Below are positions 29,859-63,683 of a stretch of DNA of 64,000 bases, one piece after another; position 1 is the stretch's first letter; every line of letters starts with the position of its first letter. This DNA comes from Candidatus Falkowbacteria bacterium HGW-Falkowbacteria-1 (GTDB lineage: Bacteria; Patescibacteriota; Patescibacteriia; Patescibacteriales; UBA12465): the NCBI GenBank assembly GCA_002840305.1, contig PHAI01000002.1, positions 10,707 to 74,706 of the forward strand, read 5' to 3'. Both the position numbers and the translations under genes were made by a program. Under the pieces are notes generated by a model. That model had not been told where the DNA came from. It saw only the letters and a list, made by a program, of their open reading frames with translations, and searched no databases.

Positions 29859-30953
29859 TTATTTACTTACTACGATTATATTTTTTTCTATTTCTTTGAT
29901 AGTTTCATGATAGCCAGTAGGGTAATCTCGAATAGCATTATAGAGTATTGTTTTATCATAGTAATATGACTCACCATTTCTTGTTCCTGGGTCGTTGGTA
30001 ATAAATTCTTCTGTTGTTGGATCGAAACCACGAATAACCATCATGTGTTGACCTGGCCCGGGAGGTCTGTAATTGGGATTGTGCACTATCTGTCCATTCA
30101 TAGGGGCCAGAACTAAATGGCCCTTGGATAGTTCTTCTACTATATCATTTATAGTTACATCTTTTTTTAAAACCACTTGGTCGTATTGAAAATAATCTTT
30201 AAAAATCCAATCAAGAGTATCTTGGGCTGATGTGTCACGTGATTCTCCGTATTTTTTTTTGAGCCAATCAGAGATACCAGTAATTTCTTTCAAAGACTCT
30301 TCCTTGCTTAAACTTTTTTCTTGAACCCATTTCATCGCCATTAAAGCTGATGATTCCTCACAACCATTTTGTTGACGCGAATCAGACCAGTCACCAAAGG
30401 GGGCTTGTGTGGTGAAGGGTACGTCGTTGATTAATATTTTTTCATTAGCCTTGGGCAGTGTCATTGATTTTGCCATTGGTTCTCCTGTTATACCAACTGG
30501 AATACGAGCTAAATCTGAATTTGTTATGCCTCGACCTAGTTCGCGCATAATCTTGAAAGCATCTTCTGGCCTTCCTAGGTAATATTTTTTTCTGTCTCCA
30601 GGATAAATATAATAAGCTTCGCCATTTTTTTCTACATCTAAGAGAATCGTGCCTGACAGTCTCTCGGGGAAAACATTTGTATCAATAATAAAGTTATGTT
30701 TGGCTCCAAGTGCTAATTCTTTCATGATTTTAAAAGCGTCATAGGGACGACCAAGATAGTATGCCTTGTTATTTGCTGGATAAATATACCAAGCCTCGCC
30801 CTTGCTTTCTACCTGTAACAGAATGTAACCAGTGGTTTCTCCTGAGTATGTCACCCCTTTAACAGTTGGCAATCCAAGCGAAATTATGGCTACCAAACTA
30901 AAAACTAGAATAATTGCTTTATATTTTAATTTTGTTCTTGTTAATGGTTTCAT
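29859..30953 (-). CDS. Secreted C39-like cysteine peptidase-domain protein (YvpB-like) with two N-terminal repeats
   Basis: N-terminal TM/signal segment; tandem repeat GxILLxVExxGEAxYIYPxxxKxYYLGRPxDAFKIMxELxxG (two copies); C-terminal VPFTTQAPFGDWSDSRQQNGCEESS is typical of peptidase_C39-like domains. Confidence 0.7.
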   Translation of the reverse strand: MKPLTRTKLKYKAIILVFSLVAIISLGLPTVKGVTYSGETTGYILLQVESKGEAWYIYPANNKAYYLGRPYDAFKIMKELALGAKHNFIIDTNVFPERLSGTILLDVEKNGEAYYIYPGDRKKYYLGRPEDAFKIMRELGRGITNSDLARIPVGITGEPMAKSMTLPKANEKILINDVPFTTQAPFGDWSDSRQQNGCEESSALMAMKWVQEKSLSKEESLKEITGISDWLKKKYGESRDTSAQDTLDWIFKDYFQYDQVVLKKDVTINDIVEELSKGHLVLAPMNGQIVHNPNYRPPGPGQHMMVIRGFDPTTEEFITNDPGTRNGESYYYDKTILYNAIRDYPTGYHETIKEIEKNIIVVSK

Positions 30954-31399: not shown

Positions 31400-31540
31400 C
31401 GTTATCTGATATTTTAGAATAGAAGTATTATAAGAAAAATGTAAAAGCTTCATTGTTGATGGGGCTTTTGTTATATCTTTGATATATGATATAATATTAT
31501 TAATAAAGTTAAATATTGATTTATATTTAAATTAAAAATT

Positions 31541-33355
31541 ATGAAATTCAAAAAAGACATATCATGCAAGCGTGTAAAATTTTTGCATGGTTTTACCTTG
31601 ATTGAACTTTTAGTTGTTATTGCTATTATTGGAATACTAGCTACTTTAGCCGTGGTGGCCCTTCAACAAGCCAGATCTCGCGCTCGTGATAGCAAAAGGG
31701 TAGCTGATATAAAACAAGCTCAAACCGCTTTAGAATTATTTTATAATGAAAATGGTAGATACCCAACGACAGAAGAGTGGGAAAGTGGCTCTATAGTATC
31801 TTCTTCTACGGGAGAAGTGTTTATGTATAATATTCCTGTTGCTCCAACTCCGGCCGATGGAGATTGTTCTGGTCCTGAAAATGACTATACTTACATTCCT
31901 AATATTGATAATTCTGACTATGATCTAAATTTTTGCGTTGGTAATTCTCCTTCCGGTTTGCCCGATGGTAATTTAGTCGCTTTTTCCGGTGGCATCAAGA
32001 GTGGCACTGAATCAGGGGCGCCAGAAGAAGATGTTTGCGACCCAGTTTGTGATTATGGGTATAACTGCGAGGGTACTTCTTGTGTTTTAAAAGATAATTT
32101 TTTTGTTTCTTTGGTTTACGGATCTGTTAATTGGAGTGACGATAAAGAGTTGGTGGACTTGACTTCTGATTCTCAGTATATTTATGCCGCTGGCAATAAC
32201 GAGCTTGAAGGCGCTGGTCAGTTAGATGGGATGATTGTTAAATACGACAAAGATAGCATGAGCATAGAAGCTAAAAGAGTTTATGGTGGTGCGGGGAAAG
32301 ATGATTTAGAGTCAATAGTTGAACAGGGAGATTATCTTTATACGGCTGGAACTGTAAACTCTGGAGCTTCCGGCAATGCTTCTTTGACAAAATATAATAA
32401 GTCAGACTTATCTTTGGTTTCTGCCTTGAGTCTTGGTAGCAGTGGAAGCAGTTCTTACACTTTAACCCGAGATGATAATTATTTATACATAGGCGTTGGG
32501 AATACGGTTATGGTTTATGATTTTGATCTTAATTTAATAAAACAAAACTCTTATACCAACTCCATTACTTCTATAACTATTGATGGTAATTATTTGTATT
32601 TAGCATCTTCGGCAGGAAACAAAATAACCACTTTGAAAGTGGATAAAAATACTATGTCCGTTGATAGTGAGAATGCCTATGGTCGAACGGGAATTATTTT
32701 TTTCCCAACGTTTAGGGGCTCGGTTGATGATAGTTATTATTATGTCTATGGTCAAATTATTGGTGAAGGTCCAGCTGGTCGCAATGGTCTTATTCTTAAA
32801 TATGACAAGAGCGATCTTAGTCTTTTGGGCAAAAAAATATATGGCAGTGCTGATACTGATTATTTTGGCTCTCTTTGTCTTTCTGGCGAGTTCCTTTATG
32901 CAGTTGGTTACACTGGCGGAGCTTTTGATGGCAGTGGTGATTTATGGTTGAACAAGATTAATCGTAGTGATTTATCTTTAGTAAGCAGCGAAGTGATAAG
33001 AGAAAGTAATCTTGATACTTGGGGATACGAAGATACTTATTCCAGCTCCTGTCTTTATGAGAATCAGAGTTTATATTTTACTGCCTATGTTGACGAGTAT
33101 GATGATGAATATAACAATATCTTTGGTAATAGCGCTGCACTTATTAAAATTAAATCGGATTTTGTTAGCAGCGACGCAAGCTCTTCTAACTCAATTTTTA
33201 CAGTTTCTCCATATACCTTAACAACAGCAGATAGCAATTTAGACATTACTGATCCTAATATTTCTAGCCAGGTTGGTACTCAGGCTAGTAATCCTCTTGT
33301 TCTTTCTAGTTCTGTGAGCAATTTGGATATTTATGGCCCTTATATTATTGAGTAG
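31541..33355 (+). CDS. Prepilin-type (type IV pilin-like) protein with a large seven-repeat beta-propeller-like C-terminal domain
   Basis: The class III signal KFLHG|FTLIELLVVIAIIGILA has G at -1, F at +1 and E at +5. A Cys-rich linker follows, then seven repeats built around xYhYxxG cores and KY[DN]KSDLSL strands (SBBP-like). Confidence 0.8.
   Translation: MKFKKDISCKRVKFLHGFTLIELLVVIAIIGILATLAVVALQQARSRARDSKRVADIKQAQTALELFYNENGRYPTTEEWESGSIVSSSTGEVFMYNIPVAPTPADGDCSGPENDYTYIPNIDNSDYDLNFCVGNSPSGLPDGNLVAFSGGIKSGTESGAPEEDVCDPVCDYGYNCEGTSCVLKDNFFVSLVYGSVNWSDDKELVDLTSDSQYIYAAGNNELEGAGQLDGMIVKYDKDSMSIEAKRVYGGAGKDDLESIVEQGDYLYTAGTVNSGASGNASLTKYNKSDLSLVSALSLGSSGSSSYTLTRDDNYLYIGVGNTVMVYDFDLNLIKQNSYTNSITSITIDGNYLYLASSAGNKITTLKVDKNTMSVDSENAYGRTGIIFFPTFRGSVDDSYYYVYGQIIGEGPAGRNGLILKYDKSDLSLLGKKIYGSADTDYFGSLCLSGEFLYAVGYTGGAFDGSGDLWLNKINRSDLSLVSSEVIRESNLDTWGYEDTYSSSCLYENQSLYFTAYVDEYDDEYNNIFGNSAALIKIKSDFVSSDASSSNSIFTVSPYTLTTADSNLDITDPNISSQVGTQASNPLVLSSSVSNLDIYGPYIIE
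31591..31867 (+). repeat. Copy 1 of the 277-nt dispersed repeat (the 5' pilin cassette); its partner is at 62579-62855
   Basis: The hand alignment has no gaps. The core 31601-31718 versus 62589-62706 matches at 116 of 118 nt. Confidence 0.9.
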
Positions 33356-62546: not shown

Positions 62547-63632
62547 ATGCTAAAAAAAGCTAAAAAGCGTATATCAGCTTTTACACTCATTGAACTTTTA
62601 GTTGTTATTGCTATCATTGGAATACTAGCCACTTTAGCCGTGGTGGCCCTTCAACAAGCCAGATCTCGCGCTCGTGATAGCAAAAGGGTAGCTGATATAA
62701 AACAAGTTCATACAGCATTAGAATTATTTTTTAATGAAAACAATAGATATCCAACAGATGATGAATGGGCCAGTGGCTCTATAGTATCATCTTCTTCGGG
62801 GGAAGTATTTATGTACAATATTCCTGCCGCTCCTACTCCATCGGATGGAGACTGTCTGGAAGCTTCTAATACTTATCAATACACTCAAATAAGTGGTGGT
62901 GTTTCTTATGAGATTTCCTTTTGTACTGGTAAACAAATCGCCAACTTGCTTGAGGGGTCAAAATGTCTCACCCCCGGAGGTATAACAGACTGCGATGGCC
63001 AATCTGGCGTGCCAGAAGAAACGTCGGGCACTTTTGTTGATTCTAGGGACAGCCAGACATATGCGTGGATTAAAATTGGCAATGACACTTGGATGAATGA
63101 TAATTTAAATTATAATGGAGATTTTATAGTTCAACAAAACCAAGTTCCTTGCGTTGAAGATGTTGTTGGTTGGAACTATTGGTCATGTCAAACAGACAAC
63201 AATAATCAAGAAAGATCATGTTTTAATAATATAGAAGGTAATTGTTCTGATTACGGTGGTTTATATGAATGGTCAGAGACTATGAGTTTTCCTTACCAAT
63301 GTAATGCTGCGTTCTTTTGGGATGGAGAAAGTGATGATTGTGGTCTAGGAGGCAGTGCCTACGTTATAGACGCTAAGCATCAAGGTATTTGCCCTCCAGG
63401 TTGGCACCTGCCAAATAACGAAGAGCTCGATGATTTATCGTTAAATTATAACAATCATTTTTTAGCTGATTTTCCTGGGATGTTTATTTACTTCTGGTCG
63501 GCCGTTCCTACGCAGGGTTACGGCCCTATATTAGCTAAATATTTCTCTCTTGATTCTGGTGATAATTCTTATGTGAATATTAGCGAAACCAACAAATCTC
63601 TTGCCGCAAACGTTAGATGTGTTAAAGATTAA
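62547..63632 (+). CDS. Prepilin-type protein fused to a FISUMP-type (Fibrobacter succinogenes major paralogous, TIGR02145-like) C-terminal domain
   Basis: The class III signal-like RISA|FTLIELLVVIAIIGILA has Ala rather than Gly at -1. The C-terminal FVDSRDSQTYAWIKIGNDTWMNDNL...GGLYEW...CPPGWHLPNNEEL...VRCVKD matches the FISUMP pattern. Confidence 0.8.
   Translation: MLKKAKKRISAFTLIELLVVIAIIGILATLAVVALQQARSRARDSKRVADIKQVHTALELFFNENNRYPTDDEWASGSIVSSSSGEVFMYNIPAAPTPSDGDCLEASNTYQYTQISGGVSYEISFCTGKQIANLLEGSKCLTPGGITDCDGQSGVPEETSGTFVDSRDSQTYAWIKIGNDTWMNDNLNYNGDFIVQQNQVPCVEDVVGWNYWSCQTDNNNQERSCFNNIEGNCSDYGGLYEWSETMSFPYQCNAAFFWDGESDDCGLGGSAYVIDAKHQGICPPGWHLPNNEELDDLSLNYNNHFLADFPGMFIYFWSAVPTQGYGPILAKYFSLDSGDNSYVNISETNKSLAANVRCVKD
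62579..62855 (+). repeat. Copy 2 of the 277-nt dispersed repeat (the 5' pilin cassette)
   Basis: See copy 1 at 31591-31867. Confidence 0.9.
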
Positions 63633-63651: not shown

Positions 63652-63683
63652 AAAAAAACGAGGGTTATACCCTCGTTTTTTTT
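63652..63683. terminator. Bidirectional terminator between the pilin gene and the recombinase gene
   Basis: Stem CGAGGGT/ACCCTCG with loop TAT, flanked by A7 and T8. Confidence 0.75.

Follow-up and report, generated by a model that had tools for sequence, protein, structure and literature searches.

Modular type IV pilins of a groundwater Falkowbacterium probably share helix-coding DNA by gene conversion

The window analysed here is a 64,000-nt stretch of contig PHAI01000002.1 (GCA_002840305.1) of Candidatus Falkowbacteria bacterium HGW-Falkowbacteria-1, a metagenome-assembled genome of the groundwater CPR (Patescibacteria), and all coordinates refer to this window. Two prepilin-like genes, A and B, lie within it on the forward strand. 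Both are located outside any pilus operon and are adjoined by housekeeping genes, and the contig that bears them keeps synteny with relatives. A third modular pilin gene, C, is found on the same 568-kb contig (locus L026), ~304 kb from gene A and outside the window, and carries a long BNR/Asp-box repeat region as its payload. In total, ~110 kb of this contig and ~20 kb of a second contig were read. The prepilin-like character assigned to A and B by the initial annotation is borne out by profile matches above the cut-offs, with 27.9 bits for PF07963 (cut-off 21.2) and 32.5 bits for TIGR02532 (cut-off 16.3) in gene A, and 30.3 and 26.0 bits, respectively, in gene B. The features of gene A and its upstream region are as follows.

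31441-31471: terminator-like hairpin ahead of the promoter-like site of gene A
31468-31495, forward strand: promoter-like site TTGTTA-16-TG-TATAAT, 5' of gene A (consensus match only)
31541-33355, forward strand: gene A, CVU82_01720, PKM91298.1, a modular type IV prepilin of 604 aa (ORF and profile matches)
31541-31591, forward strand: leader of 17 aa, MKFKKDISCKRVKFLHG, with Gly at -1 (ORF translation)
31592-32005, forward strand: complete mature pilin module, residues 18 to ~153-155 (alignment to ~145-aa stand-alone pilins; AF2 model)
31865-31936, forward strand: C109-C132 disulfide loop in the pilin head (fold kept, sequence hypervariable)
32006-32101, forward strand: linker (low-confidence residues 157-164), then a small Cys-rich hairpin (residues 166-187; AF2 model)
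32102-33175, forward strand: predicted seven-bladed beta-propeller payload, residues 188-545 (repeats, AF2 model, Foldseek)
33176-33352, forward strand: C-terminal beta tail of ~59 aa, ending GPYIIE (kept in homologues P0122 and P0123; modelled strands 553-603)

The cleavage context of gene A, ...FLHG / FTLIELLVVIAIIGILA, is a canonical G / FTLIE site. In the AF2 model, built from a 25-sequence alignment (pLDDT 83; a single-sequence run gives 39), a helix spanning residues 20-71 is followed by the head strands at 93-154, a low-confidence linker, and 28 strands arranged in seven blades. The blades correspond to seven repeats of ~50 aa with the pattern 'YxY..G ... hhhK(Y/L)(D/N)KxDLSL'. The top Foldseek matches to the payload are mostly 7-bladed propellers, besides the 8-bladed BamB, and the matches include CylK, YncE, Sec12 and a YVTN propeller, in agreement with the propeller originally proposed for this gene. 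Among named Pfam repeat families (e.g. DUF5122, BNR, WD40), none matches gene A better than E = 0.028, and DUF5122 matches are weak in its homologues. The predicted propeller is an undescribed repeat family whose fold is supported by the structural model. At E <= 1e-3, the representative library yields 256 relatives, and more propeller-bearing pilins are present there; the only orthologue of gene A found (P0122, locus L020) is distant, with neighbouring genes ~60% identical. PDB sequence searches with the payloads of both genes return nothing meaningful.

The features of gene B are the following.

62547-63632, forward strand: gene B, CVU82_01865, PKM91576.1, a modular type IV prepilin of 361 aa (ORF and profile matches)
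62547-62987, forward strand: leader MLKKAKKRISA (Ala at -1) and complete pilin module, residues 1-147 (ORF, alignment)
63030-63629, forward strand: FISUMP payload, residues 162-361 (profile matches)
63652-63682, no strand assigned: bidirectional intrinsic terminator hairpin separating gene B from a convergent xerC/D-like recombinase gene

The leader of gene B is unrelated in sequence to that of gene A. Its cleavage context reads ...RISA / FTLIELL..., and most relatives likewise have Ala at -1, a poorer prepilin-peptidase substrate than Gly in model systems. Gene B starts 34 nt 3' of an M23 peptidase gene, with which it is probably co-transcribed. The syntenic orthologue of gene B in a relative (locus L009) has the same M23 and xer flanks, including the XerC/D-like tyrosine recombinase gene. 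The FISUMP assignment made earlier for the payload is confirmed by TIGR02145 (2e-25, 90.5 bits, cut-off 41.65) and PF09603 (50.6 bits, cut-off 33.9), with the match spanning the first half of each profile only (positions 1-83 of 176). The C-terminal part of the payload reaches 21.9 bits for Lcl_C/DUF1566 (PF07603), below the cut-off of 34.9. Diversity-generating retroelements target both FISUMP and DUF1566, the latter reportedly having a C-type-lectin fold (PMC11661182). The FISUMP domain of gene B belongs to this domain group reported as C-type-lectin-like.

In both proteins, a basic leader precedes Phe at +1, Glu at +5 and ~20 hydrophobic residues, the sequence signature of type IV pilins. 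The AF2 model of gene A shows a long alpha-1 helix that packs against a beta-sheet head with a disulfide, the cysteines being taken from the alignment. Over its full length the module can be aligned with stand-alone ~145-aa Patescibacteria pilins, and it is 55-70% identical to these abundant proteins. A search with a 93-aa module listed only short pilins, and its lengths are not used to judge the frequency of long forms. In the initial annotation all similarity between A and B ended at the shared DGDC codons, where the junction between module and payload was placed. Nucleotide identity indeed falls to ~44% 3' of 31867, but protein conservation continues through N114, Y116, Y118, Y127, F131-C132, G134 and G143 to GG151-152, since the pilin fold itself continues. 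C109, Y118, Y127, C132 and G134 are invariant in the module alignment, and C109/C132 are kept in 14 family members. As judged from this alignment, the pilin module runs ~45 residues past DGDC, through the variable loop to '..PGGI' (~153 in A, 147 in B). With a module size of ~135-145 aa, the 92 shared residues (F18 to C109, 82 of them identical, as first counted) represent two thirds of a whole pilin. The fall in identity at DGDC marks the edge that this family normally shows between conserved scaffold and hypervariable loop, and the recombination junction lies elsewhere. The payloads begin after a Gly/Ser/Glu-rich linker, at approximately residue 165 in A and 160 in B, a corrected domain boundary useful for expression constructs. 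Both genes show the arrangement of modular pilins in the sense of Raynaud et al. 2021, namely a pilin module, a linker and a non-pilus domain. Gene C follows the same plan, with a class III signal peptide ahead of a whole pilin module, then a linker of this type and its own payload.

It is unlikely, though it is the strongest of the rival readings, that these proteins are not pilus subunits and that the N-terminus exports or anchors the payload or forms a short pseudopilus, as in archaeal class III binding proteins or T2SS pseudopilins. The T2SS protein GspG is among the best named matches, but A and B score 50.4 and 46.4 bits for TIGR01710 against a cut-off of 88.85, over profile positions 1-64 of 134 only, and 17.9 and 14.6 bits for PF08334, below the cut-off of 21. 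The payloads are very bulky (450-600 aa), and neither gene lies in a pilus operon; yet the closest studied analogues are incorporated in pili (PMC8179133, PMC11623550), and the full pilin head, so similar to that of stand-alone pilins, argues for a subunit. The first 28 mature residues are also common to the stand-alone pilin CVU82_00650 (154 aa), the likely major subunit. The initial annotation advised looking for pilus machinery elsewhere in the genome, and a gene for PilT (P0282), a retraction ATPase specific to dynamic pili, is on the same 568-kb contig. In a motif search of all loci read, PilT-type ATPases are the only component found, none of them inside the window.

The sequence shared by A and B, 31591-31867 and 62579-62855, extends over 277 nt without gaps at 88% identity, and no other long repeat occurs in the window. 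The figures given earlier for this alignment are reproduced, with a 118-nt core containing exactly two mismatches (31627 and 31642, both synonymous) and 10 of 50 codons changing the amino acid in the following part (codons 60-109). An exact 29-mer taken from the core has no match in the metagenome_contigs collection, from which this organism is evidently absent. When gene C is included, the following segments are distinguished.

31601-31718, forward strand: A-B conversion tract, mature residues 4-42 of the alpha-1 helix, 116/118 identical to 62589-62706
62589-62706, forward strand: counterpart of this tract in gene B
31719-31830, forward strand: conversion tract shared with gene C (L026:6205-6316; 107/112 identical, compared with only 90/112 for gene B)

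Between A and B, the Nei-Gojobori dS is 0.07 in core codons 21-59 (2/30 synonymous sites, dN 0) and 0.77 in codons 60-109 (dN 0.12). This comparison had been proposed at the outset, and the synonymous contrast between the two parts gives a Fisher P of 0.0014. A maximum chi-square analysis of A against B places a breakpoint at 31719 (permutation P ~0.005). In the three-way alignment, informative sites uniting A with B or A with C are distributed 21:3 up to 31718 and 6:24 from 31719 onwards (Fisher P = 1.3e-6); the observed maximum chi-square is reached in 0 of 20,000 permutations. By sequence comparison, gene A is a mosaic that is 98% identical to gene B over 31601-31718 and 96% identical to gene C over 31719-31830, with a breakpoint at 31718/31719. 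The clear A-B tract is confined to the core, and the next 150 nt (81% identical) are near the family background. The stand-alone pilin CVU82_00650 was considered as donor of the core and rejected, being only 66-70% identical there.

An independent second case is seen in another genome (L005), in which a tandem pair is identical from -174 to +154 but for one mismatch and 74% identical thereafter. The 3' boundary of this tract lies within ~5 nt of the homologous position. Most other within-genome paralogue pairs are 62-89% identical in the core and are not homogenised, which indicates that exchange is episodic. Recent gene conversion between dispersed paralogues, in the sense of non-reciprocal homologous recombination, is strongly supported by these patterns as the origin of the near-identical 5' segment. 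At 118 and 112 nt the tracts are short, and the base is one genome and one further case.

The exchangeable payloads suggested initially are retained in part. In relatives, one module subtype occurs with FISUMP in some proteins and with a Listeria-Bacteroides repeat and a DUF1566-like domain in others. Further payload variants, which had been anticipated, are found in four related genomes, where paralogues of 152 to 715 aa carry FISUMP, BNR, Flg_new + Lcl_C, or C-terminal regions without assignment that are possibly propeller-like. The exchanged tracts described here, however, lie inside the pilin module, so that the module is homogenised and the payloads are not swapped by them.

Pilin gene conversion is a classical phenomenon. 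In Neisseria, the transfer between pilE and pilS is likewise non-reciprocal, proceeds in short tracts between dispersed pilin sequences and uses conserved pilin sequence as homology, but there a single expression locus frequently receives variable 3' sequence from silent promoterless cassettes. In the present genome, complete expressed-type genes exchange a conserved 5' segment, leading to homogenisation (concerted evolution), with no ongoing switching in four assemblies. In the R64 shufflon, C-terminal segments of pilV are switched by the Rci recombinase. The likeness to R64 consists of a constant N-terminal pilin part, C-terminal adhesin parts that can be exchanged and that determine partner specificity there, and an adjoining tyrosine recombinase; in contrast to R64, the window is without invertible segments or sfx-like inverted repeats.

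Programmed variation of one of these kinds, or driven by a retroelement, with the 5' module as a handle for payload switching, is very improbable for A and B. The exchange is recent and involves at least two tracts, and the same 3' tract boundary recurs in a second genome, but the DNA exchanged is the conserved part and not the variable part. Antigenic variation of the Neisseria type is rejected, with tracts in the conserved helix region; each of A, B and C is a complete gene with a start codon of its own and a leader unrelated to the others, and none of them is a silent cassette. A shufflon at gene B is rejected as well: the tyrosine recombinase gene convergent to it is Xer-like and syntenic in L009, and its surroundings contain no flanking inverted repeats and no alternative or spare 3' segments. 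FISUMP is a known retroelement target (PMC11661182) and a reverse-transcriptase gene is present elsewhere on the contig (L026:12437-13657), yet this gene clusters with ATPase-like and PLD nuclease genes in a defence-system-like manner. No template/variable-repeat pair for it is found against the window, L001, L022 and L026 (~130 kb of readable genome). The chimeric junctions or population variants sought on the earlier suggestion are absent from four assemblies of different samples, in which both loci are 100% identical to the window.

Gene conversion also has to be weighed against a reading without recombination, in which A and B diverged long ago as paralogues and purifying selection, strongest there, preserves the core, possibly acting also at the RNA or DNA level through translation initiation, codon usage or membrane targeting. 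Alpha-1 is invariant in amino acids across the family, and the core codons are unusually GC-rich (49% GC in 31643-31718 versus 32% in the window). However, the DNA for these helix residues differs at 17-35% of its bases in gene C and CVU82_00650, the two other pilin genes of the genome, in orthologues including that of gene B, and in 14 relatives. An identical or 1-3-residue-different alpha-1 corresponds to 66-83% nucleotide identity in gene C and CVU82_00650 and to 74% in the syntenic orthologue of gene B, for which 26/41 codons differ among identical residues, compared with 4/42 between A and B. Since alpha-1 is encoded by divergent DNA elsewhere, there is no nucleotide-level constraint, and synonymous sites are saturated between genomes. 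Purifying selection alone, moreover, cannot yield a three-way mosaic with a sharp breakpoint. Divergent coding DNA and the mosaic together leave the selection-only reading effectively refuted. The preference for gene conversion over simple divergence expressed in the initial annotation is upheld by the low core dS, the free synonymous sites elsewhere and the A-B-C mosaic.

An assembly artefact, with collapsed or cross-threaded reads from two loci or strains or a chimeric bin, can be practically dismissed: although the source is metagenome-assembled and short contigs of other samples end not far from genes A and B, both genes are recovered with identical proteins or DNA in independent NCBI, JGI, ENA and Logan assemblies, they share one 568-kb contig with synteny conserved in relatives, and the 118-nt core is shorter than the assembly k-mer (contig names: k141), which makes graph collapse impossible.

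The reading of A, B and C as modular type IV pilins whose helix-coding DNA is shared by gene conversion is given a probability of about 0.75. Under this reading, a prepilin peptidase would remove the leader, by inference from S. sanguinis PilB and PilC and from Saccharibacteria PilX2. By analogy with these proteins, the processed pilin would then dock through the shared alpha-1 helix, probably at the pilus tip or at sparse positions along the filament. The payload may be displayed for host or environmental ligands, glycans being most plausible for FISUMP on the same analogy. Exchange between the genes would keep the assembly helix of all pilins matched, while the conserved helix-coding DNA may double as the homology that permits the exchange. 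New pairings of module and payload would arise more slowly, at the linker after '..PGGI', as the fusions in relatives suggest. It is doubtful, though conceivable, that the alpha-1 segment (mature residues 1-42), whose 3' junction recurs in two genomes, is a discrete unit carried between genes by recombination, with a favoured 3' end. CPR bacteria could then use it repeatedly to re-match adhesin pilins to the filament core, crossovers in it switching host-attachment specificity without dedicated machinery. If this were true, population-level switching would be possible, with payloads placed under other promoters or leaders by crossovers in the alpha-1 segment.

The locus adds a clear new instance of two phenomena that are already known, modular pilins and pilin gene conversion, and does not define a new class of system. 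If IPR011871 is FISUMP, which we take to be the case, the pilin-FISUMP architecture is already published, as are CPR modular pilins. Modular pilins are widespread, with >1,200 proteins in 264 architectures and CPR including Falkowbacteria among the examples, and IPR012902-IPR011871 is the fifth commonest of these architectures, with 40 proteins (Raynaud et al. 2021, PNAS, PMC8179133). Like PilB (pilin + vWA) and PilC (pilin + lectin) of S. sanguinis, the proteins described here combine an N-terminal IPR012902 module, a short linker and a non-pilus domain (PMC8179133; Shahin et al. 2023, PMC9934059), but they carry a full-size major-pilin-like head and not a small minor-pilin module. They also differ from published modular pilins in that at least three genes have an identical helix, with exchange of helix-coding DNA. 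As the propeller of gene A is in no Pfam family, gene A would be missed by a domain-based census.

Functionally, gene A has its closest analogue in PilX2 of Nanosynbacter lyticus TM7x, another Patescibacteria pilin with a C-terminal heptabladed propeller. Deletion of PilX2 reduces host binding by half, and it has been proposed to act in the manner of a lectin; PilX1 of the same organism is grouped with it as a related case (PMC11623550). PilX2 has RCC1 repeats, is located in a pilus locus and has no predicted PilD signal peptide (PMC11623550), in contrast to gene A with its canonical G / FTLIE site, other repeat family and housekeeping neighbourhood.

Type IV pili are the best-supported means of host attachment in CPR/Patescibacteria, although the evidence comes almost entirely from oral Saccharibacteria. 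The groundwater Falkowbacterium encodes at least three major-pilin-like proteins with very different display domains on one identical assembly helix, and by analogy the payloads of A, B and C are concrete candidate host-recognition proteins. The six adhesion pilins PilA1-6 of Haloferax volcanii reportedly share an identical hydrophobic N-terminal domain; they resemble the present set as paralogous pilins of one genome with an identical assembly helix and differing heads, but are archaeal and without fused payload domains. Pilin repertoires evolving as a unit could be found by a simple genomic signature, in which synonymous identity is limited to roughly the first 130 nt of mature coding sequence.

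In the window, one long repeat is found: positions 31591-31867 and 62579-62855 align without gaps over 277 nt at 88% identity. Both copies form the 5' ends of plus-strand open reading frames (genes A and B), and a third modular pilin gene (gene C) lies about 304 kb from gene A, between ftsH and L32-nusB-rnc-pilT:

31541-33355, + strand: gene A, open reading frame of 604 aa
62547-63632, + strand: gene B, open reading frame of 361 aa
L026:6021-8315 (locus outside the window), opposite orientation to gene A on the contig: gene C, 764 aa, pilin module and long BNR/Asp-box repeat region

Genes A (CVU82_01720, PKM91298.1) and B (CVU82_01865, PKM91576.1) of Candidatus Falkowbacteria bacterium HGW-Falkowbacteria-1 share one 568-kb ENA contig, and other samples and assemblies yielded identical copies of both. 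An artefact of assembly is excluded, since the k-mer used was longer than the shared tract and independently made assemblies concur. No prepilin motif besides those of A and B is present in the window.

In the core of the repeat (31601-31718 in A, 62589-62706 in B), 2 of 118 nt are mismatched, at 31627 and 31642, both synonymously. The residue is changed in 10 of the 50 codons directly after the core, and from F18 to C109 the two proteins agree at 82 of 92 residues; these counts, given in the initial annotation, were reproduced codon by codon. The dS is indeed lower in the core than in the adjoining shared region: by the Nei-Gojobori method, codons 21-59 give a dS of 0.07 and a dN of 0, against 0.77 and 0.12 for codons 60-109 (synonymous contrast, Fisher P = 0.0014), and beyond C109 substitutions are saturated. 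A max-chi-square scan places the identity step at 31719 (permutation P about 0.005). The leaders, MKFKKDISCKRVKFLHG in A and MLKKAKKRISA in B, are unrelated, as is the upstream DNA. The perfectly identical run of 76 nt (31643-31718 / 62631-62706) has 49% GC in a genome of 32% GC and uses codons rare in this genome (GCC GTG GTG GCC ... CGC GCT CGT); the tract may owe this to GC-biased conversion or to a foreign origin.

All 17 sequences compared carry the helix residues FTLIELLVVIAIIGILATLAVVALQQAR without change. The 126-nt core encoding them is free of nucleotide-level constraint: its identity is no more than 62-89% from genome to genome and among most paralogues within a genome. Gene B and its syntenic orthologue (L009; order M23 - B - xer kept, neighbours 75-76% and payload 84% identical) differ at 33 of 126 core bases and in 26 of the 41 codons for identical residues, compared with only 4 of 42 such codons between A and B. 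Gene C differs from A at 22 and from B at 25 of the 126 bases; for the stand-alone pilin of the same genome the values are 38 and 43. This pilin (CVU82_00650, P0015; 154 aa), likely the major pilin, has the same first 28 mature residues as A and B. The pairwise identities are distributed as follows:

31601-31718: A-B 116/118 identical
31592-31718: A-C 104/127 identical
31719-31830: A-B 90/112 identical, A-C 107/112 identical

In the three-way alignment, informative sites divide AB:AC as 21:3 up to 31718 and as 6:24 from 31719 to 31867, a switch with a Fisher P of 1.3e-6 and a max-chi-square value reached in 0 of 20,000 permutations. Gene A is thus a mosaic, in which about the first 230 nt of mature coding sequence comprise two adjacent tracts 96-98% identical to different paralogues, which requires at least two recombination events. 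The flank in B looks native, because the lineage-specific residues FFNEN and SSSSGE are common to B and its orthologue; this mildly favours gene A as the recipient. A comparable tract is seen in a related genome, CAZNDY, where the two members of a tandem pilin-FISUMP pair differ at only 1 position between -174 and +154 (counted from the ATG) and are 74% identical thereafter:

L005:4673-5001 and L005:6225-6553: shared tract of 329 nt covering promoter region, leader and helix

Its 3' boundary falls at most about 5 nt from the homologue of 31718/31719. Exchange is episodic, because most other within-genome pairs are not homogenised; a metagenome scan for an exact 29-mer of the core found 0 occurrences. 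The initial observation is confirmed, and its reading as a modular architecture with gene conversion is largely right: conversion is borne out by the low core dS, the unconstrained synonymous sites, the recurrence at L005 and, newly, the A/B/C mosaic. Genes A, B and C are well supported as a new example of modular pilins with concerted evolution of the assembly helix.

The shared cassette had been taken to end at DGDC, which is wrong. Many stand-alone Patescibacteria pilins of about 140-155 aa are among the close homologues listed for the shared 93 aa, in a search that listed almost only short pilins, with the 604- and 361-aa query proteins absent, and that may favour short targets. In an alignment with twelve of these stand-alone pilins, the match to A and B covers the full pilin length as far as '..PGGI' (about residue 153 of A, 147 of B), with C109, Y118, Y127, C132 and G134 invariant. 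The stretch 3' of DGDC is therefore the variable, disulfide-bonded loop of the pilin head and does not mark the payload start; the payloads of A and B begin beyond a Gly/Ser/Glu-rich linker. The drop in identity at 31867 marks the scaffold/variable-loop boundary usual for these pilins. Loop identity is 44% for A-B, 41% for A-C and 63% for B-C, with A as the outlier.

For the prepilin N-terminal motif (PF07963, TIGR02532), both proteins score above the curated cut-offs, and the GspG, PilA and ComGC profiles match over the helix only, below cut-offs. The cleavage site of B has Ala at position -1 (62574-62579, ..KKA|FTLIELL), as in most related modular pilins (L005-L017); Gly takes this place in genes A and C and in the stand-alone pilin. 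With Ala at -1, a prepilin is a poorer substrate for model prepilin peptidases.

The two payload assignments of the initial annotation, a seven-repeat propeller in A and FISUMP in B, are correct, since they agree with the profile scores for B (TIGR02145, 90.5 bits, cut-off 41.65; PF09603, 50.6 bits, cut-off 33.9) and with AlphaFold2 and Foldseek for A. The C-terminal 450 aa of A, with seven repeats of about 50 aa, matched no Pfam family. In an AlphaFold2 model built from a 25-sequence alignment (pLDDT 83, pTM 0.71), a helix (20-71) is followed by a beta head to residue 154, a low-confidence linker (157-164) and a small hairpin rich in Cys; then come 28 strands forming seven four-stranded blades, and lastly a beta tail of some 59 aa. 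Its Foldseek matches in the PDB are beta-propellers, most of them with seven blades (CylK, YncE, Sec12, an archaeal YVTN propeller, WD40 domains), and include the 8-bladed BamB. The tail (33176-33352, residues 546-604), 3' of the propeller and ending GPYIIE, has no family match and is kept in the proteins P0122 (..GPYIIE) and P0123 (..GPFVIQ). The propeller has one orthologue, P0122, also a pilin and 63% identical, and 256 more distant relatives at E <= 1e-3 in a representative library; the prepilin N-terminus is above cut-off in 3 of 10 relatives scanned and just below in a fourth.

Among the GTDB species representatives, four related genomes (several of them mislabelled 'Gammaproteobacteria', one named Patescibacteria) each hold 2-5 paralogues of 152-715 aa with the same pilin module and these payloads:

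none (stand-alone pilin)
FISUMP
BNR propeller
434-aa type, C-terminal region without Pfam match, beside nusB-rnc-pilT (the position of gene C)
long region without Pfam match, then Lcl_C-like domain
Listeria-Bacteroides repeat and Lcl_C-like domain (L016)

The loop of L016 is 81-88% identical in DNA to FISUMP-bearing genes of other genomes, and similarity stops after 'PGGIIF'; module-payload shuffling therefore does happen in this clade, at the linker. The proposal of exchangeable payloads therefore holds among relatives, where the predicted further variants (FISUMP, BNR, Listeria-Bacteroides repeat with Lcl_C-like, none) are found, but payload swapping as an active process was overstated. Two modular pilins end early inside FISUMP (L007:6001-6678, 225 aa; L017:5971-6579, 202 aa) and may be pseudogenes or truncated variants.

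The pilin set is not a new kind of system. We take IPR011871 to be FISUMP, with which the UniRef name of gene B is consistent. Modular pilins were defined by Raynaud et al. in 2021, with more than 1,200 counted in 264 architectures; with 40 proteins, IPR012902-IPR011871 ranks fifth in frequency, and several representatives come from CPR phyla, Falkowbacteria included (PMC8179133). We infer the function of A, B and C by analogy. Efficient host binding by Nanosynbacter lyticus TM7x requires PilX2, a pilin that bears a propeller (PMC11623550). A ligand-binding role for the payload would fit, because diversity-generating retroelements repeatedly target FISUMP and DUF1566 domains and a C-type-lectin fold is reported for DUF1566 (PMC11661182).

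As for such a retroelement here, a reverse transcriptase is encoded at L026:12437-13657, clustered with a PLD nuclease, but no template/variable repeat pair was found in the DNA read. A shufflon is rejected: neither inverted repeats nor spare segments were found, and the recombinase is Xer-like and syntenic. Neisseria offers the classical case of gene conversion between pilin sequences, in which silent cassettes diversify the variable region, whereas in HGW-Falkowbacteria-1 complete genes exchange the conserved helix segment; a cassette system of that type is rejected, as no silent copies exist. Nothing specific was found in the literature on pilin gene conversion in CPR.

The neighbours of A and B are housekeeping genes. 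Gene A, preceded by a promoter-like site of its own, is flanked by an ABC ATPase, ArsP and a C39-like protein, then Gmad2 and GNAT; gene B starts 34 nt past the M23 peptidase gene, which follows uvrB, and ends at a strong hairpin terminator before a convergent xerC/D-like recombinase. No pilus machinery is encoded in the window; PilB, PilC and PilD were not seen in the DNA read (about 110 kb of the 568-kb contig and about 20 kb of a second), and PilT (P0282) is on the 568-kb contig. The Peptidase_C39_2-like protein upstream of gene A (29859-30953, - strand) carries an N-terminal duplicated domain, 'GEAWYIYP..KAYYLGRP.DAFKIM.ELA.G', with homologues (41-49% identical) at L010:4314-4748 and L020:13096-13530, a few kb from modular pilins in two other genomes. 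In GCA_022710685.1, the gene A orthologue is preceded, at a distance of about 3 kb, by a pair of small T4SS_pilin (PF18895) genes (L020:5738-6637).

On the 568-kb contig, some 1.2 kb downstream of pilT, an RVT_1 reverse transcriptase (406 aa), an ATPase-like protein of 566 aa and a nuclease of the PLD family (403 aa) are encoded at L026:12437-16512, next to a metallo-beta-lactamase / Apyc1-like gene; the cluster looks like a retroelement of the defence type and not like a diversity-generating one. The following 4.7 kb or so (L026:16513-21281), in which the longest open reading frame is at most 109 aa, may be an rRNA operon.
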